DNA from: Escherichia coli
Lineage (GTDB): Bacteria; Pseudomonadota; Gammaproteobacteria; Enterobacterales; Enterobacteriaceae
DNA: 64,000 nt
Reading direction: 5' to 3' (one strand)
Assembly: GCF_050920415.1 (NCBI RefSeq)
Contig: NZ_CP169309.1
Made by a program: the position numbers and the translations under genes. This document shows positions 44,617-60,324 of the stretch, one piece after another (the stretch's first letter is position 1; each line of letters opens with the position of its first letter). The notes under the pieces are model-generated. The model searched no databases. It was not told the DNA's origin and saw only the letters and a program-made list of their open reading frames with translations.

Positions 44617-45195
44617 ATGGATCTGTTGATTGTTTTAACTTACGTGGCGCTGGCATGGGCGGTCTTTAAAATCTTCCGTATTCCGGTGAATCAGTGGACG
44701 CTGGCGACGGCGGCGCTGGGAGGCGTTTTTCTGGTAAGCGGTTTGATTTTGTTGATGAACTACAACCACCCTTACACTTTTACCGCACAGAAAGCGGTGA
44801 TTGCTATTCCCATCACGCCACAGGTGACGGGGATCGTGACTGAAGTCACTGACAAGAATAATCAGCTTATTCAGAAGGGCGAGGTGCTTTTTAAGCTCGA
44901 CCCGGTACGTTATCAGGCGCGAGTCGACAGACTTCAGGCTGACCTGATGACGGCGACGCATAATATAAAGACGCTGCGCGCGCAGCTCACTGAAGCGCAA
45001 GCCAATACCACCCAGGTTTCAGCGGAGCGTGACCGCTTGTTTAAAAATTATCAACGTTACCTGAAAGGCAGCCAGGCGGCGGTAAATCCGTTCTCAGAAC
45101 GTGATATCGACGATGCGCGGCAGAATTTTCTCGCGCAGGATGCGCTGGTGAAAGGTTCGGTGGCGGAACAGGCGCAAATCCAGAGCCAGCTCGAC
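44617..45195 (+). pseudogene. yibH: yibH 5' fragment (HlyD-family membrane fusion protein), 193 codons, interrupted by IS insertion
   Basis: [23 protein letters not shown]... reading frame runs into IS left end at 45196; the rest of the gene resumes at 47324. Confidence 0.85.
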
Positions 45196-45296
45196 TGTCA
45201 GCGCCAATGATATAAGACAGTAATTCACCATTTGGATTGTCCGCTCCACCCAACATGTTGTTTCCTTAAGGTTCCTACACCACAAAGGGAACACTC

Positions 45297-46343
45297 ATGC
45301 TGAGCAGAGAGGACTTTTACATGATAAAGCAAATGCGCCAGCAAGGTGCGTATATTGTTGATATTGCCACTCAGGTTGGTTGCTCTGAGCGGACTGTCAG
45401 ACGGTACCTGAAATACCCGGAACCTCCGGCCAGAAAAACACGCCACAAAATGGCCAAACTCAAGCCGTTCATGGACTATATCGACATGCGTCTGGCTGAG
45501 AATGTCTGGAACGGCGAGGTCATCCTGGCGGAAATCAAAGCGATGGGTTATACCGGTGGCCGTTCCATGTTGCGTTACTACATCCAGCCCAAACGTAAGA
45601 TGCGGCCATCGAAGAAAACGGTTCGCTTCGAAACTCAGCCCGGTTACCAGCTACAGCATGACTGGGGAGAAGTTGAGGCTGAGGTTGCCGGGCAACGATG
45701 CAGGGTTAACTTCGCGGTTAATACGCTGGGGTTCTCACGTCGCTTCCATGTCTTCGCGGCACCAAAGCAGGATGCTGAACATACCTATGAGTCACTGGTC
45801 CGCGCCTTTCGCTACTTCGGCGGCAGCGTGAAAACCGTGCTGGTCGATAACCAGAAAGCCGCAGTGCTGAAAAATAACAACGGGAAGGTGGTGTTCAACT
45901 CCGGGTTCCTGCTGCTGGCCGATCACTATGGCTTCCTGCCACGGGCCTGCCGTCCACGAAGGGCCAGAACCAAAGGTAAGGTGGAACGGATGGTGAAATA
46001 CCTCAAGGAAAACTTCTTCGTCCGGTACCGCCGGTTCGACAGCTTCGCCCATGTTAATCAGCTACTGGAGCAGTGGATGGCTGACGTTGCCGACAGGCGG
46101 GAACTTCGCCAGTTCAGGCAGACACCGGAACAGCGCTTCACGCAGGAACAGGTGCATCTGCAGGCGCTGCCAGGTACGGACTTCGATACCAGCTACTTCG
46201 ATATCCGTCATGTCTCCTGGGATGGCTATATCGAGGTTGGCGGGAACCGTTACAGCGTGCCGGAAAGCCTGTGTGGCCAGCCGGTATCAATACGGATCTC
46301 GCTGGATGATGAACTGCGATTTACAGTAATGAGCAACAGGTAG
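45297..46343 (+). pseudogene. istA: IS21-family transposase IstA, frameshifted near 3' end (348 aa as read; about 390 aa if the -1 shift around 46313-46343 is repaired, then ending at 46468)
   Basis: HTH N-terminus and integrase-core-like body; alternative frame open from 46313 to TGA at 46466-46468, which overlaps the istB ATG. Confidence 0.8.
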
Positions 46344-46455
46344 CATCGCACCGTCTCTGTTCGGCTGTATACGGCTGGCAGACCGTGCCGGAGCATCACG
46401 CCCCACTCTGGCAGCAGGTCAGTCAGGTGGAACACAGGCCGTTGAGTGCCTATGA

Positions 46456-47262
<807 letters not shown>

Positions 47263-47323
47263 TGACCAATAGCGGACATTAAAAATGGCGAAAAACGGCC
47301 AATAATCTTGGCGTTGACACGAC

Positions 47324-47881
47324 AGTATGGTTAACGGTGAGCAGTCGCAGATTGTCAGCTTAAGGGCGCAGCTTACCGAAGCGAAATATAACCTTGAGCA
47401 GACCGTCATTCGCGCGCCGAGCAATGGCTACGTTACTCAGGTACTGATCCGCCCAGGTACATACGCAGCTGCCTTGCCGCTACGTCCGGTGATGGTTTTC
47501 ATCCCCGAGCAAAAACGGCAAATTGTCGCCCAATTTCGGCAGAACTCGCTGTTACGTCTGAAACCCGGCGATGATGCGGAAGTAGTGTTTAACGCGCTAC
47601 CTGGGCAGGTGTTCCACGGCAAACTGACTAGTATTTTACCTGTCGTGCCAGGTGGTTCGTATCAGGCGCAGGGGGTACTGCAATCATTAACCGTCGTACC
47701 CGGCACGGACGGTGTGCTGGGAACCATCGAACTGGACCCTAACGCTGATATCGATGCTTTACCCGACGGCATCTACGCCCAGGTGGCAGTTTACTCCGAC
47801 CATTTCAGCCATGTTTCGGTGATGCGGAAGGTGCTGCTAAGAATGACCAGTTGGATGCATTATCTTTATTTGGATCATTGA
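47324..47881 (+). pseudogene. yibH: yibH 3' fragment (185 codons); joins in-frame with 44617-45195 to give 378 aa once IS and TSD are removed
   Basis: ...[32 protein letters not shown]... typical HlyD/EmrA-like; frame arithmetic confirms. Confidence 0.85.
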
Positions 47882-48185
47882 GGGGGGCGGGGGAGATTAT
47901 GGAACTTTGCTCCTTGTAAGGACTAATTATTTTTGCATATTACTTCATTGGCTGCGATGATTTTTCTTTAATATTCATTAGGTTGAGAAGTTCTTGATGA
48001 GTGTGCTCTCATTGGATTTTTTATCCGTCTTGTTCTGCCGCAGGATCAGACTATACATCGTCGAGATCGCAATGATTATGAATTGTTCCTCTGCGACGAT
48101 GCTAATCAAAAAAGTGCTGGAGTGCTTTTCCATCTATTGCGATGATGGTTTTATTATCTGAAGAATGACAGTCACACATCCAGCT

Positions 48186-48457
48186 AATAAAGAACTCGTG
48201 AAATTTTCCAGGACTGATACAGGACACAACTCTGGTAATGATATCGTGAATAGGAATACCATATTAAAAATCACCATATTGCTTCAACAAATCGAGATGA
48301 GTCTCACCAGAATCCTCTATATCTTCCCATCCTTCAGCTCCGGAAATGATGGCGAAAATAATCAGCACTAGGATATCTGATAATTTATACTCTACTTTCC
48401 AGACTTGTCTGTAATCGGGACAGTAGAAATATGCTCCATTAATTTTTTAAGTTCCAT
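48186..48457 (-). pseudogene. H-repeat (ISAs1-family) transposase N-terminal fragment, degraded copy 1 (frameshift and in-frame stop)
   Basis: Begins ATG-GAA-CTT-AAA-AAA (MELKKLM...) like copy 2 at 50276-50572 but carries a 1-nt deletion and a stop. Confidence 0.7.
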
Positions 48458-48915
48458 TTTTTCTCCTTGTTTATGTAAGGAGTGTCTGAATATATATAAG
48501 CTATGAAAACACTTATTAAATAATAAGGGATATCTTGATTATTGGACATTTAGTGCTAATTGTTTAGTGCAAAAAATCGGCGTTATATGGTCTTTACCTT
48601 TATTACCCTTGCTGTTTTCCTCCAGCCTATGAAAAGCCAGCTTCAGTAAATCGTACCGCCCGAACATTGTAAGATACAATTTACTGACAACTTAGTACAT
48701 TATTAATATCACATTTAAGCTTTTTTTTCAGATTATAAAGCCTGTCCACTTTATAATCTTTGCAATTATAAACGTATTCTTTTTTTGTTTTCATATCAAT
48801 GACACTAACCCCTCGCATGTTACTACCGTTGTCGTAATTGCTAAACACGGAGTACTTATATCCACTTTGAATAAAACTAACGCTAAAGTAATCCGTTTGA
48901 AATCTGGAGTAATGA

Positions 48916-49128
48916 TTATAAAAAATCCTGAATACATTGGTCCATCTGAAATGAATTGAAATTTATCCCATGCTGACTATTCATTTCATAAATCAACGTT
49001 TCACCAAAACTTGTTAATGACAAAGTTCCTTTGGATGTATTACATAAAAAATAATTATTTCCTGCGTTTAGAGTCCAGGGAATTCCAGATAAAAAAATAA
49101 AAATTAATGCTCTATCTATATTGCTCAT
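48916..49128 (-). CDS. Small hypothetical protein (70 aa) with N-terminal hydrophobic segment; candidate immunity protein for the orphan muramidase-like toxin domain
   Basis: ORF start overlaps the stop of the orphan toxin ORF by 17 bp; MSNIDRALIFIFLSGIPWTLNAG... Confidence 0.35.
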   Translation of the reverse strand: MSNIDRALIFIFLSGIPWTLNAGNNYFLCNTSKGTLSLTSFGETLIYEMNSQHGINFNSFQMDQCIQDFL

Positions 49129-50276
49129 AATTAGCCCTTATTCTGTCATCATATCCTCGCTGACTTTGCCCATTATAACATAGAGCAAAGTTAAGCCAAT
49201 CTTTATCTCTAATAGCACGCAATAATACAGGATTAGATTTTATGAAGTTAATGAATGCCGCCAGATGGTTTTTCTCTGACTCTGAAATCGATATTATAAA
49301 CTCTTCGGGCGAAGAGTACCCGGCAGCTTGGTAATTTGAAGCCAATATCTGAAATTTACCCCACGATGCCGATTTAAGCGCAGCTTGCTTATCTAAAACA
49401 TATGCACGAAGTAATTTTTGATATTGCTCCGATCGTGTTCCATAACCGCCAGAACGGCTGTTGGAAATATCAGGTTGAGAATCATACACACCATTCGTAT
49501 ATCGATGGAAATGATGTCTTTCAAAAAGAATTGAGGGGACGTAATCATCTTCTTGTTCAAATTTAAAATAGCTACCGGAACTACCAGTTTCAGTTTTTGC
49601 AACAGCTTTAATTGCAGCCACTTCGCATTGTAGTGTCCTTGCAGCATTTTCATAGTCTGCATCATCAATGGTATCTCCGTTATAAAATCGTAAAAATTCC
49701 AATGGAATAAGTTCATTATTTACAGGAGTTTTTGGGTAATTGCTATTATTAATAGCATTCAAAAACACAACCGGATGAAAATGCCACACAGCATCATCAC
49801 TATTAAACGGAGACACCCCGCTCATCCACTCCAGATCCAGCTGCCACTTTTCACAGTATGCCACTTCCTCGGGTCCAGATCTTTATAAAACCCTTCCCAG
49901 CGTCCCGTCGAGCGACCGCCGTACCACTCGCTGTGGTGTCTGACTGTCAGACGATTCACCACATTTCTCACCAGTGGTTCACGCACGGTCAGCGCCTGTC
50001 TGATCTCTTCCTCCGTCACTTTTCCATCACCGTCCTGATCCATACCCGCCATCAGCTCACGATAAAAGGGCGGTACCTGCTCATACAGCCACTCATCTCC
50101 CTGTTCTGCGGCACGGCTTATTGAGTCAAACGCTTCCGGCACCCATCCTTCGTACGGGCTGTACGTCATGTCACCGCTGCTGTTCTCCTCCAGCGGCTGA
50201 AAACCCAGCTTCAGTAAATCATACTGTCCGGCCTCTTCAACATCCTTCTGTGGCAGCCAGCCGGTTCCGGTGATAT
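49112..50276 (-). pseudogene. Displaced (orphan) effector 3' module: shared pre-toxin region with EF-hand loop plus a distinct C-terminal N-acetylmuramidase-like domain; 5'-truncated and carrying a 1-nt frameshift near 49866
   Basis: 49764-50276 is near-identical to 52116-52630 of the full-length effector; downstream domain has ...FERHHFHRYT... and ...SWGKFQILASNY... motifs; no start codon; two overlapping ORFs (49822-50391, 49112-49864). Confidence 0.75.
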
Positions 50277-50572
50277 TAAGCCGCCTCTGGTTTCCTTTTA
50301 ATAAAGCACTCGTGAAATTTTGCAGGACTGATACAGGATACAACTCTGGCAATGGTATCGTGAACAGGAATACCATTATCAAAATCACCATATTGCTTCA
50401 AAAAATCGAGATGTGTTTCCCCAAAATCCTCTATATCTTCCCAGCCTTCTGCACCCGAAATAACGGCACAAATAGTCAACAGTAGAATATCCGATAATTT
50501 ATGTTGCACTTTCCAGGCTTGTCTGTAATCGGGGATAATAGAAATATGTCCCATCAATTTTTTAAGTTCCAT
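50276..50572 (-). pseudogene. H-repeat (ISAs1-family) transposase N-terminal fragment, copy 2 (about 92 codons then truncated)
   Basis: [64 protein letters not shown]... matches the start of E. coli H-rpt proteins, then loses homology. Confidence 0.8.
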
Positions 50573-50873
50573 TTTGTTCTCCTTAATTATGTAAGGAGTA
50601 TTTGATCATGTATAAGCAATAAAAAACAGCTTTAGGTAATGAGGAATATCTCAATTTTCAAACATAAAATGCGAATTGTCTAGTACAAAAAAGCAGCGTT
50701 ACGTGATCTTTCCCTGCCTGCCTGTACGATATCCCTCAAAAATAATTTTCCAGTCAGTTATTCATGTCTAACTTAAAATCATAAAACATTTAAATTAATA
50801 ATAAACAAATTCAACCTAGTCGCATTATTATTTTAATAACACAGCATCGATTTCATAAAAAACTGCACAATGG

Positions 50874-51284
50874 TCATCCAGTCCATTTGCAATCAGTACC
50901 ATCATCATTATATGCCTCAATATTTTCTTCAAACTCAGTTGTTTTCCCACTTATTGATTTATAATGAAACAAATTAAATCTTGCACCTTGTGTGGAAACA
51001 ACATACAACCCATTAATTTTTCCATTTACAACCTCGCTCCATGCATAAGAAAATTCAGAAGGCCTGTCATCGAAAGTCACTTCTAATTTATTTATAAACG
51101 CAAGAGGTATAAATTTTGAGGATTTCTCATAAATCACATAACCTAAAAAAATATCGCCAGACGATATTTCAACAAACTTTAAATTTGTTTTCCCAGCGCT
51201 AAAACAGCCTACCGTTGTTTGTTGTTTAGCCAATAAACAACAAGGCACCAAACAAAACAGTAAAACCAATAAGTTAACTTTCAT
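50874..51284 (-). CDS. Candidate immunity protein (136 aa, cleavable signal peptide) for the upstream GH19-like effector
   Basis: MKVNLLVLLFCLVPCCLLA...; 5 bp downstream of effector stop; small secreted protein. Confidence 0.55.
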   Translation of the reverse strand: MKVNLLVLLFCLVPCCLLAKQQTTVGCFSAGKTNLKFVEISSGDIFLGYVIYEKSSKFIPLAFINKLEVTFDDRPSEFSYAWSEVVNGKINGLYVVSTQGARFNLFHYKSISGKTTEFEENIEAYNDDGTDCKWTG

Positions 51285-51289
51285 ATCAA

Positions 51290-53779
51290 TTACTCCAGTT
51301 CAGTTATTCGTCTCTCTACAAATGTGGATATATTCCTTTTTTCTATTCCATATACTTTTCTATCACCCTCACGCCCTTCCTGAGGAAACGGATGCAGGTC
51401 AATTAATTCTTTCGCCCTTCTATAACCTTTTAATGCTTCTTCGTTACTCTTGATCGTCCCTCTTCGGGAGCTATCAGGATCATGCCATATCCCCCATCCC
51501 AAAGCATATACTTTATTATCATATACGTCACTATCATCAAACAAGAAATCGTCGTTCATTGCTTTCTGATTTAAATGCTCGGCAGCAAGTGAGGTAACCA
51601 ATTTATTAAATATCGACAACCGTTCATCATAATGATTATACCCTCCATTAATCACTGCTGTAATTTTATTAAAATCATCATTTTTAGCATCTTCATTTAT
51701 TCTTTTGAATATATTGAAATACCAAAACGCAGATAATACGCAATGTGGGGAGGATATAAGTTTATCTCTTGCGGAATCTGAAGATGTTACGTCCTCATTG
51801 ATATATTCCCCATAGGCGGTGTAATTACTTTCCCCTGTAACTTGTATTAAGCCTCGGCCATACCACGGACTATATGAAGCTGATTCACCATTAATTTCTT
51901 TGGTATATCTAAAATAACCGCTCTCGTGAATAATTTGAGCAAGAAAATGGGCTTTTTCTCTACAAGTGGTCATACCAAACCGAATAAACCCTGCATTTAT
52001 ATCGTAGAGGTACCTTTTGAGAAGACCTTCACTTACTGCAGGAGCAACTTTTTTTAATTCATCTAATGTTATATCTCTGTTGCAAGCACACACAGATTTG
52101 GAATTAATAGCGTCCAAAAACACAACCGGATGAAAATGCCACACAGCATCATCACTATTAAACGGAGATACCCCGCTCATCCACTCCAGATCCAGCTGCC
52201 ACTTCTCACAGTATGCCACTTCCTCTGTGTCCAGATCTTTATAAAATCCTTCCCACCGCCCTGTCGAGCGCCCTCCGTACCATTCGCTGTGGTGTTTAAC
52301 TATCAGATGATTCACCACATTTCTCACCAGTGGTTCACGCACGGTCAGCGCCTGTCTGATCTCTTCCTCCGTCACTTTTCCATCACCGTCCTGATCCATA
52401 CCCGCCATCAGCTCACGATAAAAGGGCGGTACCTGCTCATACAGCCACTCATCTCCCTGTTCTGCGGCACGGCTTATTGAGTCAAACGCTTCCGGCACCC
52501 ATCCTTCGTACGGGCTGTACGTCATGTCACCGCTGCTGTTCTCCTCCAGCGGTTGAAAACCCAGCTTCAGTAAATCATACTGTCCGGCCTCTTCAACATC
52601 CTTTTGTGGCAGCCAGCCGGTTCCGGTGATATTAAACCACCACTGCTGCGATTCATCCGTGATCGGTGTCGTGGCTTCCCGCGGAAGAACGCGCTGAGCA
52701 CCCAGTGTGGCTGCGGTTGCGGTAAATACCTCCTGTCCCGGAACGGCCTGCCGGGTGTATAAAATTATCCCTTTTGGTGCCAGAACAGTCCGTTTTTCTC
52801 CCTTAACGCCTGCCGGGTTGGATAAGAACTTTGGCATATTCGGGTCTGTACTCAGAACCTCCAGATGGACGAACCACTCGCGCTCAATCTCACCGCTTCC
52901 CTCGCCAGGATAATCCTCGCATCCCATAAATCCGACCGGTGTTCCGGCACTGACTTTCCACTCTTCCGTTTCGTCGACCGTCTGTACCGAGTCAAAAATG
53001 CCTTTTGCCTTCGCCTTCTGCATCCACTCAGGCATCAGCATCTGTATTTCGCCATCTGACTCCATCAGATCCGGATCCAGGGTCACCCAGTACTGCTCAT
53101 TCCCCGGTTTATTGCCTTCCAGCAGGCGAACCAGTCCGAATGTCGTCAGGACCGGCTGGCCGTTATTGGTCACGTAAAAACGTCCGGTCCGGGATGACAC
53201 AAACCGATCTCCCGCATTAAGTGTCCTGTTTCCGCTGATTTTCGGGGGTATCCAGTACGTGGCATGATCTCCGCTTTCCTGCCCCTCGGGAAGGCCGTTC
53301 TTTCCCGGGATGTATCGGTGCAGCAATATGCCACCATGCCCGGTTTTAACTTTATAGCAGGGGGAGCCGGGATAATCGTTCACCGGGGCCAGATGCATAT
53401 AGAGACAGTAAAATTCCAGCCAGCTTTCTTTTTTTTGCGGGTCTGGCTGGCACTGCGATTTCACCAGAACAAATGTGCTGCTGTAACGGAGTTGCTGCCC
53501 TTTGTAGGTGCCTTTCAGGTAATCATTATTTATCCGGTACGCCGCAATGGTGCCATCGGCCATAAACTGAAGAGGAACCGGTTCTCCGGTAGCGGCGGTA
53601 TCCGGTTTCAGGGCTGATAACGGATTAGACACGTCACTGATATGTATCCCGCCGTGCCACAGCCCGTTTCCACCCAGCAGCCAGGTTCCGTGCGCTTCTT
53701 TGTCAATAAGCCGCATTATCTCATCCAGCGAGCGAAACTCTTTGCCTTCTTTATCCCTGATGGGATGGCTGATTTTCAT
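51290..53779 (-). CDS. VgrG-linked candidate T6SS effector, 829 aa: N-terminal domain of unknown function, central EF-hand-like Ca-binding loop, C-terminal GH19/lysozyme-like peptidoglycan hydrolase domain
   Basis: 9 bp downstream of vgrG stop; DQDGDGKVTEEE loop; C-terminal ...AHFLAQIIHESGYFRYTKE...YGRGLIQVTGESNYTAYG...LSAFWYFN... resembling the GH19 / COG3179 signature. Confidence 0.7.
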   Translation of the reverse strand: MKISHPIRDKEGKEFRSLDEIMRLIDKEAHGTWLLGGNGLWHGGIHISDVSNPLSALKPDTAATGEPVPLQFMADGTIAAYRINNDYLKGTYKGQQLRYSSTFVLVKSQCQPDPQKKESWLEFYCLYMHLAPVNDYPGSPCYKVKTGHGGILLHRYIPGKNGLPEGQESGDHATYWIPPKISGNRTLNAGDRFVSSRTGRFYVTNNGQPVLTTFGLVRLLEGNKPGNEQYWVTLDPDLMESDGEIQMLMPEWMQKAKAKGIFDSVQTVDETEEWKVSAGTPVGFMGCEDYPGEGSGEIEREWFVHLEVLSTDPNMPKFLSNPAGVKGEKRTVLAPKGIILYTRQAVPGQEVFTATAATLGAQRVLPREATTPITDESQQWWFNITGTGWLPQKDVEEAGQYDLLKLGFQPLEENSSGDMTYSPYEGWVPEAFDSISRAAEQGDEWLYEQVPPFYRELMAGMDQDGDGKVTEEEIRQALTVREPLVRNVVNHLIVKHHSEWYGGRSTGRWEGFYKDLDTEEVAYCEKWQLDLEWMSGVSPFNSDDAVWHFHPVVFLDAINSKSVCACNRDITLDELKKVAPAVSEGLLKRYLYDINAGFIRFGMTTCREKAHFLAQIIHESGYFRYTKEINGESASYSPWYGRGLIQVTGESNYTAYGEYINEDVTSSDSARDKLISSPHCVLSAFWYFNIFKRINEDAKNDDFNKITAVINGGYNHYDERLSIFNKLVTSLAAEHLNQKAMNDDFLFDDSDVYDNKVYALGWGIWHDPDSSRRGTIKSNEEALKGYRRAKELIDLHPFPQEGREGDRKVYGIEKRNISTFVERRITELE

Positions 53780-53788
53780 GTTCAGTCC

Positions 53789-55990
53789 TTATCGTGAGAA
53801 TCTTCCCGGCCGTTGTGGCGGTACCTTATCCTGCTGGGGAGGATCAAAGGCTTCCTGTACATTTTTCCGTGGTGGCTCCGCCCCTTCAGTTCCAGGTCCG
53901 CCATTGTCATAATCTGCCAGCGCTTTCAAAACCGCCGGTCGTAGTGTCGGCACCGGCGTTCCCGGACTACCGCCGCTATTGAGATTGATTTTCGGCCCGA
54001 CGATGTCCACGCCCCCTGAATGGATGACCACAAACGAACCACCCACCTTCAGGGTGATTTTACCGCCACTCTCCAGTACGATTTCATCCCGGACCTTCAT
54101 TCCCAGCGCACCGGTAATCTTCCTCGCCAGGTCGCCCTTCACCTCCAGACTGTGCGTTCCCTCCACCAGACTGATATGGTTCCCCGTCGTCTTATGCTCC
54201 TGCTTCCCTTCCACCGTCACTTTACGGTCGTTTCTGACATACAGGCCGTCATCGTGACTCACGCTCACCGTCCGGTCATTCGTCACCTTCAGCGTCTGGT
54301 CATTACGTACCGTTATGCGCCGGTCGTTCGCCACCGTGATACTCTGGTCGTGGCCCCCTTCTTTTCTGGTGCCGACCTCAACCGTCTGCCCCTTCACCAC
54401 CCTTATCTTCTGGTCGTTACCGATGGTCTCCGTATGGTCATGCTTCACGTCCGTCGTCCGGTCGTTAAGCACCTCCGTGTCCATGTTCTTCTGCGCGTGG
54501 ATATACACCTGCTCACTGTCCGTCGCATCCTCGAAACGCAGTTCATTAAAGCCGCTTCCTTTATAGGTCTTCGAGCGGATGGTCATCTGCGTCCGCGTGC
54601 CCGGTAAATCCCCCGGTGAACGGTTATCTTCATGGTAGGTCCGCCCCGTCACAATGGGCTGGTCCGGGTCGCCGTTCAGAAAGTCCACTATCACTTCCTG
54701 ACCCACACGCGGTATCGCCAGATTGCCGAACCCCGGTCCCGCCCATGCCTGCGACACCCGTATCCAGCATGAACTCTCCTCCGTCATCCCGTGATAACGG
54801 TCCCAGTGAAACTTCACCCGTACCCGGCCATGCTCGTCGCAGAATATCTCCTCGCCCTTCGGCCCGGTCACGATGGCACTCTGCGGGCCGTCCACCTTCG
54901 GCTTCGGCAGGGGCTGTGAGCGCCAGGTCCGGTCTGCCGGGATGACCGTGATATGGTTACTCAGTGTCGTTCCCCTCCCCTGGCTCCCGTGCAGCGCCTG
55001 CGGCTGGCTCCCCGTCAGCGTGCTGCTCACCACCTGCCACTCACGGTTCGGGTTCGCTCCCTGTACCGGATGCCCCGTCAGGGTGAACCGCCGTCCCGGC
55101 CACAGCGCCGGGGAGTTACTGATACCTGTGGCGGTTTCAGCACTGTTACGCAGCCCTTCCAGCCGGTAGCGGGTAAAGTCCTGACCATGCTGCTCGTCCT
55201 TGTAGCGCCCCGGCCAGTCCAGGATTTTGTACTGCTTCAGTTGCTCGTTGAGGTTTTCAGCATCCTCAATGTAAATACCCGGCCAGTCCGGCACCTTAAA
55301 CGTGTGGTCTTTTGAACGCACCTGCGAGGGCCGCACCTGCGCCTGGTAGCGGAACAGGCTGATGCACGCCGTCGTCACCTCACGGGTGTTCGGGTTAAAC
55401 GGTATCTCCCCGTACACCGGCAGGCCCGCCACATCATCGCACAGCGTGAGCGTCTGCTCCGGGCTGTCGTCAGCGTATCTGTCATAAAAGAAGATGCCTT
55501 CCTCCGCCCACAGCCGGGTCAGAAACGCCAGGTCGCTTTCACCGTACTGGACGCAGAACTCCCGTGCCGGGTGGCTCTCATAAAAGCGCGGCGTCCACTG
55601 CGTCACTCCGTCCTCGTTTAACAGCGTGGCGGAGATGGCCTGAATGTCCTGCTGCTGGAAGATTCGGTAGTTCTGCCGCAGCCCGCTGCGCCACAGGGGC
55701 GGGCGTATCTGAAGGTGGTACTGCATCTGCCAGCCGTTGTGCTCCTTCATGCCTAACCCCGACACCACACCGCTCACATAACGCAGCGCCGTGCCACCCT
55801 GCCAGATGGTCAGCACGGCCCCCTTCTCCAGCAGCTTCTCCGCCGTCTGGCGGAACGAGTCGCTGGCAACGTCCACATCCAGGACGAACGGCGATGAGTA
55901 TGCCTGCGTGAGGCGGAAATCCACCACCGCGAACGTCTCCGGCACCAGTCCGTCCACCGTCAGCGTAAAACGCAGCCCTTTTAATGACAT
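53789..55990 (-). CDS. vgrG: T6SS spike protein VgrG (copy B), 733 aa
   Basis: MSLKGLRFTLTVDGL...; gp27/gp5-like regions (...GQEVIVDFLNGDPDQPIVTGRTYH...) and C-terminal beta-helix repeats (VKHDHTETIG...ITVANDRRITVRNDQTLKVTNDRTVSV...). Confidence 0.9.
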   Translation of the reverse strand: MSLKGLRFTLTVDGLVPETFAVVDFRLTQAYSSPFVLDVDVASDSFRQTAEKLLEKGAVLTIWQGGTALRYVSGVVSGLGMKEHNGWQMQYHLQIRPPLWRSGLRQNYRIFQQQDIQAISATLLNEDGVTQWTPRFYESHPAREFCVQYGESDLAFLTRLWAEEGIFFYDRYADDSPEQTLTLCDDVAGLPVYGEIPFNPNTREVTTACISLFRYQAQVRPSQVRSKDHTFKVPDWPGIYIEDAENLNEQLKQYKILDWPGRYKDEQHGQDFTRYRLEGLRNSAETATGISNSPALWPGRRFTLTGHPVQGANPNREWQVVSSTLTGSQPQALHGSQGRGTTLSNHITVIPADRTWRSQPLPKPKVDGPQSAIVTGPKGEEIFCDEHGRVRVKFHWDRYHGMTEESSCWIRVSQAWAGPGFGNLAIPRVGQEVIVDFLNGDPDQPIVTGRTYHEDNRSPGDLPGTRTQMTIRSKTYKGSGFNELRFEDATDSEQVYIHAQKNMDTEVLNDRTTDVKHDHTETIGNDQKIRVVKGQTVEVGTRKEGGHDQSITVANDRRITVRNDQTLKVTNDRTVSVSHDDGLYVRNDRKVTVEGKQEHKTTGNHISLVEGTHSLEVKGDLARKITGALGMKVRDEIVLESGGKITLKVGGSFVVIHSGGVDIVGPKINLNSGGSPGTPVPTLRPAVLKALADYDNGGPGTEGAEPPRKNVQEAFDPPQQDKVPPQRPGRFSR
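54085..54930. repeat. About 0.85-kb block near-identical to 58422-59267 (internal vgrG segment shared by both paralogs, offset 4337 bp)
   Basis: Antisense ORFs 54020-54607 and 54616-54945 are letter-identical to parts of 58204-58944 and 58953-59534; VgrG proteins identical over about 270 residues. Confidence 0.85.
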
Positions 55991-56145
55991 GATGACCTCC
56001 CTGGTATTGCTACAGGAAAAAGTAATTAACCGATATTGACCGTACCTTCTGATATTCTCTCACTGATTCATTATCTGTATTTCCCATGAACATTCTCATT
56101 TCAACAGGAAAACCAACGAATTGTAGCCATGACAATAAGTTAACA

Positions 56146-57075
56146 TTAATAATTCCTCAACGAATAAGGAGGAGATGCCCTGTCCCCATCAATAGTAACC
56201 ACGACCTGATTTGATCTTATTTTGAATATATTATCATTACCGCCATGATAGCCAAATCGTGCTAAAAAATCCTGAAATAGACCAGGTCCTCTATAAGGTC
56301 CACAGATTCTCCAAACCCGCCACTCCTCTATGCCATACGTTATTTTATCTATAGGATTAGTACACTCTCTTTCTGCCCGCCAGTTCATAATAGAAAGAAA
56401 ATACTCATATATATATTGTTCTGCAAACCACTCTTGATTAACTATTGTAAATTCTACCGTCCCTATATTATAACGATGAATGCCCGGTAAAAAGGCATAA
56501 TAATCGTTCAATGTGACATCAAAGGATAGCTCTTTCCCTGGTAATATCTCGCGCCAAACAGATTTACTTTTCCATTCACCAAAGCTACATTTTGTTTTTT
56601 TTAAAAAATCCAACTGAATGTTATCCATTATCGGTATAAACACACCACTACACAAGGAAGAGTAAGGCCCGCCGTTAACGTCAAGAGGAAGAGTTAGTCG
56701 ATGAACAAAATAAGATCCCTGGCTTTTATTCGATAAAACCACTGCAGCTGCTACAATATTTTCTTTCTGATGCACGGAAAGATGAAGATATATTTTATTT
56801 TTATCCTGATTATACTGACTCTCATTTTTACTGATAGTATAATATTGAAAAACAGCATAGGCTGAAAGATCATCATAATAATCATAATAATTAAGCCTTG
56901 TCGGTTCTACACGAGGATAGACACCAAGTTTTTCCATTACTCCATTCCAATGTAACTTCCCATATCTGTAATGAACCGCATAATCGCCAGAGATATCATA
57001 AGCAAATATTGGATGCACCCAAGAAAAAAAAGCAATAAAAACAATCCATCTAGCAAGCATATACTCCCCCGTCAA
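56146..57075 (-). CDS. Candidate immunity protein (309 aa, N-terminal signal peptide) for the upstream HExxH effector
   Basis: MLARWIVFIAFFSWVHPIFAYD... signal peptide; 9 bp downstream of the metallopeptidase-like gene; Trp/Tyr-rich. Confidence 0.5.
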   Translation of the reverse strand: MTGEYMLARWIVFIAFFSWVHPIFAYDISGDYAVHYRYGKLHWNGVMEKLGVYPRVEPTRLNYYDYYDDLSAYAVFQYYTISKNESQYNQDKNKIYLHLSVHQKENIVAAAVVLSNKSQGSYFVHRLTLPLDVNGGPYSSLCSGVFIPIMDNIQLDFLKKTKCSFGEWKSKSVWREILPGKELSFDVTLNDYYAFLPGIHRYNIGTVEFTIVNQEWFAEQYIYEYFLSIMNWRAERECTNPIDKITYGIEEWRVWRICGPYRGPGLFQDFLARFGYHGGNDNIFKIRSNQVVVTIDGDRASPPYSLRNY

Positions 57076-57084
57076 ATAAAAGCA

Positions 57085-57930
57085 TCAATATGGTACAGGA
57101 ATCTCGAAATAACGTTCGATATTATATGCATTCTGAAACAGTTCTGATTTTTTATCATTTTTTAATTTAGTGGCATGAGCAATATATTCGTCACCTGTAC
57201 TATACTCTATATCTACCGGCATATCTTCCGTCCACATGCCTCCAAACTTAAGTGAATCCCCGTACCTTATAAAGTGAGATAGTTCATGGCAGAGTGTCGA
57301 TGCCTTAGAGTTTTCCCCAGTGAATGGCCTATCTATAAATCTTTGTCCTATAGTTATACTTACCAAACTTTTAAAGCTTCCAGATTTTACACCCAAAATC
57401 TGATCGTAAGTTACATTGGCAGCATAAGCGTCATTATCTGTACAATTCACAAAGTTACCAATTTTGGGCCTGATTACGTCTTTGTCAACATATTCATTAC
57501 CCCCTTTGTCATTAAGAACAAGATTACAATTGGCATCACGTTTGAGGAAATGGTCATGAACGGTAACGTCTACACAATCACCTTCCACAGATAATTCCCC
57601 ACATATCTCATACAGGCGAGTAACGCCATTTCTCATATAATCCCTTGCCTTTATATTCTCTGTAAACAGAGTATTACGCCCCCCGAAAGGGAACTTTAAT
57701 TTAATATAAGTATTTCCATCAATGCCAAATATATTTATAAATTCCTGATTTTGTTCCGCCCCCCATTTATCACCAAGATCTTCTACTCTTTTTTTCAATA
57801 CAGCCATCTGCGCCTTCAGAGCCTCTCTCATCATTATTTTAAAATCATTAGTAATTTTCCCCTCCTTTAAAACTACACACTGTTCACCACTCTGGCTTTT
57901 TCCGCTCGTACTACCCTTTTCATCTCCCAT
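57085..57930 (-). CDS. VgrG-linked candidate effector, 281 aa, with HExxH zinc-metallopeptidase motif (TLCHELSHF)
   Basis: Follows vgrG copy A by 81 bp; HELSH motif in C-terminal third; no signal peptide. Confidence 0.6.
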   Translation of the reverse strand: MGDEKGSTSGKSQSGEQCVVLKEGKITNDFKIMMREALKAQMAVLKKRVEDLGDKWGAEQNQEFINIFGIDGNTYIKLKFPFGGRNTLFTENIKARDYMRNGVTRLYEICGELSVEGDCVDVTVHDHFLKRDANCNLVLNDKGGNEYVDKDVIRPKIGNFVNCTDNDAYAANVTYDQILGVKSGSFKSLVSITIGQRFIDRPFTGENSKASTLCHELSHFIRYGDSLKFGGMWTEDMPVDIEYSTGDEYIAHATKLKNDKKSELFQNAYNIERYFEIPVPY

Positions 57931-58011
57931 ATAAATCCTCCTTGGTATATATTTTCACTACAAACCCTGTTCCATTTATGCAAAAACACGCCAATTACAG
58001 GCGGTCACTCT

Positions 58012-60324
58012 CTATTCATTAATCCCTCCCCATATCATATCGATATTCAAATGCAACAATCTGACGTCTATTGTCTGCTCGCTGTCAGTGGTGAATATTT
58101 CCGTATACCCATCCTTATCCGTTTCTCCGCGGGTCTGCGTGCCGTCCTCAAAGAAGGCAATGTAGCGTGTCTCTGAATACGGTATCCCGTCATCGTCTGT
58201 AAAATGGAACTGGAGAGTATATTTTTCAGGGTTCTCATCATCATTCTCATCCTCCAGCGCCTCCAGTACAACCGGTTGCAGCGTCGATACTGGCGTCCCC
58301 GGACCTCCCCCACCATTCAGGTTTATCTTCGGCCCCACTATATCCACGCCGCCAGAGTGTATCACCACGAACGAACCGCCCGCTTTCAGGCTTATCTGGC
58401 TGCTGCTCTCCAGCACGATATCCCCGTCCACCTTTATCCCCAGCGCGCCACTCACCTTCTCCGCCAGGTCACCCTTCACCTCCAGGCTGTGTTTCCCCTC
58501 CACCAGGCTGATATGGTTTCCCGTCGTCTTATGCTCCTGCTTCCCTTCCACCGTCACTTTACGGTCGTTTCTGACATACAGGCCGTCATCGTGACTCACG
58601 CTCACCGTCCGGTCATTCGTCACCTTCAGCGTCTGGTCATTACGTACCGTTATGCGCCGGTCGTTCGCCACCGTGATACTCTGGTCGTGACCCCCTTCTT
58701 TTCTGGTGCCGACCTCAACCGTCTGCCCCTTCACCACCCTTATCTTCTGGTCGTTACCGATGGTCTCCGTATGGTCATGCTTCACGTCCGTCGTCCGGTC
58801 GTTAAGCACCTCCGTGTCCATGTTCTTCTGCGCGTGGATATACACCTGCTCACTGTCCGTCGCATCCTCGAAACGCAGTTCATTAAAGCCGCTTCCTTTA
58901 TAGGTCTTCGAGCGGATGGTCATCTGCGTCCGCGTGCCCGGTAAATCCCCCGGTGAACGGTTATCTTCATGGTAGGTCCGCCCCGTCACAATGGGCTGGT
59001 CCGGGTCGCCGTTCAGAAAGTCCACTATCACTTCCTGACCCACACGCGGTATCGCCAGATTGCCGAACCCCGGTCCCGCCCATGCCTGCGACACCCGTAT
59101 CCAGCATGAACTCTCCTCCGTCATCCCGTGATAACGGTCCCAGTGAAACTTCACCCGTACCCGGCCATGCTCGTCGCAGAATATCTCCTCACCCTTCGGC
59201 CCGGTCACGATGGCACTCTGCGGGCCGTCCACCTTCGGCTTCGGCAGCGGCGCGTGACGCCACGTCCTGTCTGCCGGTATCACCTCAAACTGATTGCTCA
59301 GTGTCGTCCCTTCACCGTGACTCCCGTGCAGCGCCTGCGGCTGTTCTCCCCGCAGTGTGCTTCCCACAACCTGCCATTCCCGGTTCAGCGTCGCTGACGG
59401 ATGGCCCGTCAGCCGGAACCGCGTTCCCGGCCACAGCCGCGCCGTGTTACACACCCCGCTCGCCGTCTCCGCCCCGTTCCGCCACCCTTCCGTCTGGTAA
59501 CGCGCAAAATCCTGGCCATGCTGCTCATCCTTGAAACGCCCCGGATAATCAAATATCTCGTACTGCGTTCCCTGTCCGTTCAGGCTCTCCCCGTCATGGC
59601 TGTAGTACCCCGGCCACCCCGGCGTTTTGAACGTATAATCCTGCGTCTCCACCGACGCCACGCTTATCTGCGCACGGTAACGGAAGTCGCGGATGTACTC
59701 TGTCGTGCCTCCGGTCGTGGTATTCGGGTTAAACGCCAGCGCCCCCATTCCCGTCAGCCCCGCCACGTCATCACACACCGCCAGCTTCTGTTCCGGCCCG
59801 TCCTGACTGCAGCGTTCATAAAAGAAGATACCTTCCTCCGCCCACAGCCGGGTCAGGAATGTCAGGTCGCTCTCCCCGTACTGCACGCAGAACTCCCGCG
59901 CCGGGTGCGCCTCATAGAACAGCGGCATCCACGCCGTCACCCCGTTCTCTTCAAGAAGCTGCGCTGATATCGTCTGAATGTCCTGCTGCTGGAAGATACG
60001 GAAGTTCTGCCGTAACCCTGCCCGCCACAGCGGCGGGCTGATGCTCAGGGAATAACGCATCTGCCAGTCGTTGTTCTCACCGAGCTGCACCTCTGTCACG
60101 ATACCGCTGACGTAACGCTGTGCAGTGTCGCCCTGCCAGACCGTCAGCACCGCGCTTTTCTCCAGAAAATCTTCTGCCGTCAGGTCAGACAGTCCGCTGG
60201 CGATATCCACATCCAGGATGAACGGTGTGCAGTGGTGCTGGTACAGACGGAAGCTCACCACCGCCGTCGCCATCTCCACAATACCGTCCACCGACAGCGT
60301 GAAACGTAATCCTTCTGCTGCCAT
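58012..60324 (-). CDS. vgrG: T6SS spike protein VgrG (copy A) with about 100-aa C-terminal extension, 770 aa from MAAEGLRFTL (the ORF in the track starts 11 codons upstream)
   Basis: Same domain order as copy B; extra C-terminal tail ...EKYTLQFHFTDDDGIPYSETRYIAFFEDGTQTRGETDKDGYTEIFTTDSEQTIDVRLL... Confidence 0.9.
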   Translation of the reverse strand: MAAEGLRFTLSVDGIVEMATAVVSFRLYQHHCTPFILDVDIASGLSDLTAEDFLEKSAVLTVWQGDTAQRYVSGIVTEVQLGENNDWQMRYSLSISPPLWRAGLRQNFRIFQQQDIQTISAQLLEENGVTAWMPLFYEAHPAREFCVQYGESDLTFLTRLWAEEGIFFYERCSQDGPEQKLAVCDDVAGLTGMGALAFNPNTTTGGTTEYIRDFRYRAQISVASVETQDYTFKTPGWPGYYSHDGESLNGQGTQYEIFDYPGRFKDEQHGQDFARYQTEGWRNGAETASGVCNTARLWPGTRFRLTGHPSATLNREWQVVGSTLRGEQPQALHGSHGEGTTLSNQFEVIPADRTWRHAPLPKPKVDGPQSAIVTGPKGEEIFCDEHGRVRVKFHWDRYHGMTEESSCWIRVSQAWAGPGFGNLAIPRVGQEVIVDFLNGDPDQPIVTGRTYHEDNRSPGDLPGTRTQMTIRSKTYKGSGFNELRFEDATDSEQVYIHAQKNMDTEVLNDRTTDVKHDHTETIGNDQKIRVVKGQTVEVGTRKEGGHDQSITVANDRRITVRNDQTLKVTNDRTVSVSHDDGLYVRNDRKVTVEGKQEHKTTGNHISLVEGKHSLEVKGDLAEKVSGALGIKVDGDIVLESSSQISLKAGGSFVVIHSGGVDIVGPKINLNGGGGPGTPVSTLQPVVLEALEDENDDENPEKYTLQFHFTDDDGIPYSETRYIAFFEDGTQTRGETDKDGYTEIFTTDSEQTIDVRLLHLNIDMIWGGINE

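Follow-up and report, generated by a model that had tools for sequence, protein, structure and literature searches.

A 70-codon reading frame in Escherichia coli is probably the 5' remnant of a pseudogenised T6SS muramidase immunity gene

Introduction

A tract-sharing orphan arrangement permits toxin swapping by recombination in Rhs/CdiA-type loci. Among T6SS toxins, glycoside-hydrolase effector-immunity pairs of the Tge/Tgi kind, such as Tse3-Tsi3 and Tge2-Tgi2, were reportedly described by Whitney et al. in 2013. Orphan immunity arrays are found in the T6SS clusters of V. cholerae, as is a DUF3380 effector type (Kirchberger et al. 2017, PMC5361080). In the WHIX report, WHIX effectors carry peptidoglycan-targeting C-termini, downstream genes with signal peptides are their predicted immunities, and the N-acetylmuramidase C-terminal class counts 353 proteins (Fridman et al., PLoS Biol 2025, PMC12135965).

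Here we examine an orphan toxin module in a 64,000-nt stretch of Escherichia coli DNA; the whole of this stretch is called the window. A preliminary description had put forward a 70-aa ORF at the end of the orphan toxin gene as its possible immunity gene. We conclude that this ORF is probably the 5' end of a former immunity gene, cognate to the toxin of an orphan T6SS effector module and pseudogenised here. The immunity family is unnamed, uncharacterised and new; the effector-immunity arrangement itself is an ordinary one.

Results

An orphan module with a predicted muramidase

The locus lies between yibF and yibH/mtlA. The yibF-yibH interval is the site of rhsA in E. coli K-12; since it holds vgrG genes in the window strain, it represents there a T6SS vgrG/effector island and not an Rhs element. 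The minus strand reads, in order, vgrG, an 829-aa effector, a 136-aa gene, an ISAs1 fragment, an "EF-hand" fragment with the PF11860 ORF, some 650 nt with no RefSeq annotation, another ISAs1 fragment and an IS21-disrupted yibH. The main features around the module are as follows.

51290..53779, minus strand: full-length T6SS effector WP_000703217.1, 829 aa, directly 3' of vgrG (tssI)
50874..51284, minus strand: 136-aa gene that directly follows the full-length effector; its N-terminus is hydrophobic and resembles a signal peptide
50299..50715, minus strand: 5' fragment of ISAs1 (H-repeat), separating the orphan module from the main effector-immunity pair
49748..50289, minus strand: 543-nt tract by which the orphan module matches 52103..52645 within the full-length effector gene, at 96% identity
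49872..49873, minus strand: 1-nt deletion at the carrier/toxin junction, GGACACCGAGG to GGAC-CCGAGG
49112..49864, minus strand: orphan toxin ORF, 250 aa, GTG start, PF11860/DUF3380 N-acetylmuramidase at residues 81-249
48185..48599, minus strand: 5' fragment of ISAs1 (H-repeat) at the end of the orphan module, in direct repeat with 50299..50715 (82% identity)

The full-length effector combines a WHIX-type carrier (LWHGGIH, fitting WHxxxH) with an EF-hand and a weak GH19/chitinase-like match at its C-terminus. It falls in the WHIX class by its WHxxxH motif, its vgrG neighbour and a peptidoglycan-targeting C-terminus, the last resting on the weak GH19 match, and it is listed in the WHIX effector dataset (Fridman et al., PLoS Biol 2025, PMC12135965). 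From its position, the 136-aa gene is presumably the immunity gene of WP_000703217.1. Its sequence was compared with that of the 149-aa family described below, and the two are unrelated.

The upstream ORF had been called muramidase-like, and the profile search agrees, with a Pfam PF11860 match at E=6.5e-46. The DUF3380 endolysin structures 7Q4S, 5NM7 and 7RUM are matched at E=1e-25 to 1e-31, and the catalytic Glu is kept, E92 aligning with Glu101 of the endolysin AP3gp15 (PDB 5NM7). Profile and single catalytic Glu together mark the orphan toxin as a predicted PF11860/DUF3380 N-acetylmuramidase. It is limited to the toxin and the C-terminal portion of the carrier, and it has no WHIX N-terminus. 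With a 3' toxin fragment devoid of a delivery domain, a position downstream of a full-length effector and a tract common to both, the locus has the make-up of an orphan toxin-immunity module, and the 543-nt tract is a likely substrate for toxin-swapping recombination. The deletion at 49872/49873 puts the carrier-homology tract out of frame with the muramidase. It also occurs in strain N96 and the assembly ENA ERZ27298360, and RMDEC465 is intact there. The window strain is thus predicted to have no deliverable copy of the PF11860 toxin.

Several further rearrangements were seen around the module. At 48610-48662, just 3' of the immunity stop, a 53-nt remnant matches 52534-52586 of the full-length effector gene (the GQYDLLKLGFQPLEENS region) at 85% identity; the remnant abuts the ISAs1 fragment and looks like the IS-truncated stump of a further orphan module. 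Relative to the window, RMDEC465 (L002, 1254-5601) has an extra block between the main effector pair and the muramidase orphan, where the window has only the ISAs1 fragment at 50299-50715. The block comprises a complete ISAs1, part of a vgrG, a gene for a protein with an S-type pyocin domain and a bacteriocin immunity gene. Between its two ISAs1 5' repeats, the window strain seems either to have lost this block or never to have acquired it. Elsewhere in the yibF-yibH interval, 53789-60324 holds a pair of vgrG (tssI) genes that flank two hypothetical genes, and at 44617-47881 yibH (HlyD-family) is split by the IS21-family element ISEc62 (istA 45297-46469; istB 46469-47262, which RefSeq flags as frameshifted).

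The 70-aa ORF is part of a 149-codon gene

The small ORF was correctly placed by the preliminary description: its ATG at 49128 lies 17 nt ahead of the last stop-codon base of the muramidase ORF (49112). Its N-terminus (MSNIDRALIFIFLSGIPWTLNA) is hydrophobic, as had also been noticed, and resembles a signal peptide. An ORF of at least 70 aa arose in 182 of 2000 composition-preserving shuffles (~9%) of the surrounding 731-nt AT-rich stretch, which has a GC content of 29-38%. This length is within the range of chance, and therefore the reality of the feature rests on homology and not on the ORF itself.

Such homology is found in three other Escherichia genomes, RMDEC465, N96 and MOD1-EC7003, which have an intact gene of 450 nt and 149 aa. 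PGAP annotates it in RMDEC465 and N96 as the hypothetical protein WP_000065119.1, at the same position and again starting 17 nt before the muramidase stop, and Escherichia sp. MOD1-EC7003 has the identical intact gene. The orphan module was found in 3 of 5,426 complete E. coli genomes. Over the gene, nucleotide alignment of the window copy with the intact alleles shows only two 1-nt gaps and one substitution. The true feature is therefore 48681..49128.

48681..49128, minus strand: full immunity pseudogene, counterpart of the intact WP_000065119.1 (149 aa)
48916..49128, minus strand: reported 70-aa ORF, ATG-initiated; codons 1-54 are native and hold the signal peptide and ~32 mature residues
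within 48916..49128, minus strand: codons 55-70 of the 70-aa ORF, out-of-frame read-through to a frameshift-made stop
49068, minus strand: C-to-A substitution, His21 to Asn (H21N), at position -2 of the predicted signal-peptide cleavage site
48966..48967, minus strand: first of the two 1-nt deletions, the coding strand reading GGGATAAA in place of GGGAATAAA; so far in this assembly only
48920..48925, minus strand: second of the two 1-nt deletions, by which the T7 run of the intact alleles is shortened to T6
49135..49139, minus strand: Shine-Dalgarno-like AAGGG, 6 nt upstream of the ATG and within the 3' end of the toxin ORF

The last 16 residues of the 70-aa ORF (INFNSFQMDQCIQDFL) are thus a frameshift product, and the substitution turns TLHA|G into TLNA|G. 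In the window genome, 54 of the 149 codons remain in frame; the C-terminal 80 codons are 100% conserved and lie in a third frame, with the original stop at 48681. The 70-aa ORF is therefore not the gene that it had been taken for, its length being an artefact of the frameshifts. RefSeq annotation can be corrected accordingly: the interval from the muramidase ORF to ISAs1 is neither empty nor a 70-aa gene, and contains a 448-nt immunity pseudogene.

In N96 (L003, 3332-5947), the IS66-family element ISCro1 interrupts the orphan muramidase ORF, and the downstream 149-aa gene is intact. An Rfam scan of the window at 47900-51300 gave no match. A promoter-like TTGGCT-16-TATAAT with 10/12 matches and an extended-10 TG lies within the toxin ORF (49199..49172, minus strand), 44 nt upstream of the immunity ATG, from where it could drive immunity internally. 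We do not count this site as evidence of a promoter: such sites are as frequent in shuffles, and the hexamers coincide with DWL/YNG codons conserved in all loci.

The intact gene belongs to a family tied to PF11860 toxins

A word-indexed search found 45 clusters of homologues of 145-151 aa, at 99-43% identity, in Escherichia, Enterobacter, Citrobacter, Salmonella, Cronobacter, Yersinia, Erwinia, Pluralibacter and Acerihabitans. All 45 are labelled hypothetical and have no Pfam domain. An exhaustive profile search extended the family to 370 clusters (50% identity) at E<=1e-3, of which 148 reach E<=1e-10; most of these members are 160-190 aa long and carry the signature motifs. Neither Pfam nor NCBIfam has a match for the 70-aa or the 149-aa protein, Pfam returned nothing meaningful for ten distant relatives, and a profile search of PDB sequences with the 149-aa family gave one chance-level match (E=0.2). 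Two very large proteins, P0208 (3256 aa) and P0235 (2413 aa), show 8 and 12 repeated partial matches to family profile positions ~19-62, a region that corresponds to YFxC...beta-hairpin.

Conservation of the ORF beside the muramidase domain had been proposed beforehand as a check, and it holds for the full-length gene: all 17 distinct homologues examined are encoded directly downstream of a PF11860 muramidase domain. This set reaches from Escherichia to relatives that match at only E ~1e-18 to 1e-25, the distant relatives P0177, P0182 and P0192 likewise follow PF11860, and the linkage extends over Enterobacterales and beyond. A scan of species-representative genomes yielded 6 loci, and hence most of the synteny evidence comes from exact-protein look-ups. 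In homologous loci, the immunity gene overlaps the toxin stop by 14, 17 or 20 nt, and a purine-rich Shine-Dalgarno-like motif (GGAG/GAGG-type) stands 6-10 nt before the ATG in all of them. The proteins encoded upstream are typically 764-1092 aa long, and their genes often follow vgrG/hcp or lie in a T6SS cluster with PAAR and tssM (L004, L022, L027, L029); the gene upstream of a 149-aa homologue is usually that of a VgrG-linked WHIX-type T6SS effector. In the Enterobacteriaceae lineage with P0024 (L006-L008, 7065-11378), the muramidase-immunity pair adjoins an IS (DDE_Tnp_1) and a CBASS-like operon encoding a CD-NTase/SMODS protein, an E1-like ThiF, a JAB protein and a SAVED effector, which suggests a mixed defence/competition island.

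The predicted protein has the features of an exported domain. A heuristic signal-peptide check found a basic n-region in the family, with 39 of the 42 members showing a hydrophobic core and 37 carrying Ala at -1. The family alignment shows four invariant cysteines (C29, C123, C140, C148), a YNHYSRFQTDYF core and a C-terminal CDxxSALGC. AF2 gives a confident all-beta model of the 149-aa protein (pLDDT 85, 10 beta strands, residues 1-20 disordered), and a fused toxin-linker-immunity model has a pTM of 0.61 for the whole fused chain. The 149-aa gene is under purifying selection; its dN/dS is 0.15-0.39, compared with 0.06-0.17 in the toxin domain. Toxin and immunity diverge from the window pair together (toxin/immunity identities of ~99/100, 90/75, 84/70, 71/47 and 68/46 percent), the immunity protein faster than the toxin domain.

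The gene thus shows adjacency and co-orientation with a toxin domain, recurrence across unrelated genomes and, heuristically, an export signal, by all of which T6SS immunities are recognised. Because the 149-codon gene always follows the PF11860 toxin domain in other bacteria, it almost certainly encodes the immunity to this toxin, as far as sequence and synteny can tell. Function is here assigned from position alone and the fold matches no known lysozyme inhibitor specifically, so the family could instead supply some other periplasmic or secreted accessory of the muramidase, such as a co-factor, a secretion adaptor or a second toxin. We regard this as very unlikely. Known T6SS adaptors are cytoplasmic, whereas the 149-aa family has predicted signal peptides; the protein evolves faster than the toxin and under purifying selection; and its immediately 3', overlapping position fits the pattern reported for WHIX effectors. 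Moreover, the gene is kept intact beside truncated or IS-disrupted toxins (L006, L016, L017, L021), which is the behaviour expected of an immunity gene and not of a co-factor.

The window copy carries two frameshifts

An immunity gene could still be whole in the organism if both 1-nt deletions were assembly (homopolymer) errors. The T7 run is a classic site of long-read error, the other lesion drops one A from an AA pair, the annotation of the window flags istB, too, as frameshifted, and PGAP gave the region no annotation. We nevertheless consider this explanation very unlikely. The identical T7-to-T6 deletion is found in two independent metagenome/read-run assemblies, ENA ERZ27298360 and Logan SRR6060206, and is therefore a real allele. 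Both are sources from which we recovered the DNA of P0013, a 112-aa protein of a public collection that is the product of an allele with the T-run deletion only; this deletion truncates the protein and by itself would be enough to destroy the gene. Furthermore, ~45 core housekeeping genes in the 64-kb window show no frameshift, the window copy has a private substitution (H21N) as well, and the two deletions are the sole indels in 2.75 kb of alignment with N96. The deletion at 48966/48967, seen in a single assembly, could be an assembly error on its own. The alleles form a series that runs from intact to one frameshift and, in the window, to two frameshifts plus a missense change.

Programmed frameshifting was also considered and rejected: both lesions go in the same direction (net -2), and the intact alleles do not have them. 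In Escherichia whittamii (L014, 4001-4446), the homologous immunity gene is frameshifted too (NMRGVSV to NMRGGASLI*), beside a muramidase fragment of just 215 codons, which makes it a second, independent instance of this orphan module in decay.

That the 70-aa product is functional, whether as a minimal form of the immunity or as some other small protein that is exported or sits in the membrane, is scarcely credible: start codon, Shine-Dalgarno-like motif and signal peptide are indeed kept, but the product retains only five of the 26 family-invariant residues, one of the four invariant Cys and none of the YNHYSRFQTDYF core, spans at most the first three of ten predicted strands (the third only partly), ends in 16 frameshift-derived residues present in no homologue, and has no homologues of ~70 aa in the word-indexed search save evident frameshift products.

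The proposed identity as cognate immunity gene is thus strongly supported by the synteny; what did not survive is the idea of a working gene, since the copy is broken here by two frameshifts. Orphan toxins had been said to be retained with their immunity genes for the sake of protection. With 54 native codons and so few invariant residues left, protection by the window allele is almost certainly lost. Deletions are present in the orphan junction as well as in the immunity gene, which indicates that the whole module is eroding.

Discussion

Our analysis suggests how the intact protein may act. It would be translated from the conserved Shine-Dalgarno-like motif within the 3' end of the toxin gene and would reach the periplasm by means of a cleavable Sec signal peptide; there, the four invariant cysteines, oxidised by the Dsb system, might form two disulfides that stabilise it. 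The small all-beta domain could then bind an incoming muramidase and block its cleft, so that cleavage of peptidoglycan is prevented and the cell is shielded from neighbours firing a WHIX-carrier/muramidase effector. Inactivation in the window lineage may have been stepwise, with the T7-to-T6 slip common to other isolates followed by the second 1-nt deletion and H21N, and the window allele would yield only a signal peptide and ~32 native residues. As the orphan has no WHIX N-terminus and its junction is frameshifted, loss of the immunity should carry no self-killing cost.

Since the junction of the orphan toxin and the immunity gene have both decayed, orphan modules are evidently not always maintained. 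Strict synteny also ties an unnamed family to PF11860-type T6SS effectors and makes it a testable candidate for a muramidase inhibitor, in an enzyme class of current interest for endolysin-based antimicrobials. The family may serve as a marker for predicting which Enterobacterales strains resist WHIX-muramidase attack. A broader proposal, which we put forward tentatively, is that the 149-aa proteins are an undescribed, widespread family of dedicated DUF3380/PF11860 muramidase inhibitors with a new disulfide-stabilised beta fold and a YNHYSRFQTDYF signature. If so, members might also inhibit the many Gram-negative phage endolysins that use the DUF3380 fold, and the allelic series would be a natural record of how orphan immunity is lost once the cognate threat is gone. 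The wider family may merit experimental attention on this account.

Among known inhibitors of muramidases, the lysozyme inhibitors offer one comparison. No Pfam match links the 149-aa protein to Ivy, MliC/PliC, PliI or PliG, and by the profile and fold comparisons made here it falls outside the lysozyme-inhibitor families (Ivy, MliC/PliC, PliI, PliG, LprI/DUF1311). Structural scores of the family are in the range of generic small beta-barrels (FABPs, avidin-like). Unlike Ivy, MliC/PliC, PliI and PliG, the 149-aa family is genetically tied to one specific toxin domain. The family likewise has no sequence similarity or significant structural similarity to solved immunity proteins, and the same comparisons show no relation to Tsi3/Tgi. 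It resembles the Tgi proteins of the Tge/Tgi pairs in being a predicted periplasmic immunity encoded beside a muramidase effector, for which occlusion of the active site would be expected by analogy; the toxin differs, having the PF11860/DUF3380 fold with a single catalytic Glu.

Closer parallels are found with the predicted immunities of WHIX effectors. These are likewise encoded immediately 3' of a peptidoglycan-targeting toxin domain and have a signal peptide; the 149-aa family is neither named nor tested in that study, and WP_000065119 does not appear in the available portion of the supplementary text (Fridman et al., PLoS Biol 2025, PMC12135965). The window gene differs further from those predicted immunities in belonging to an orphan, non-deliverable module and in being a pseudogene. 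In its arrangement, the module matches the orphan modules of Rhs/CdiA loci and of V. cholerae, each being a 3' toxin-immunity cassette that has no delivery domain, lies downstream of an expressed effector and shares a homology tract with it, and the flanking ISAs1/H-repeat fragments recall the E. coli Rhs loci in particular. Compared to these systems, the carrier in the window is a WHIX cargo effector in place of Rhs, CdiA or VgrG, and the immunity gene has decayed instead of being preserved.
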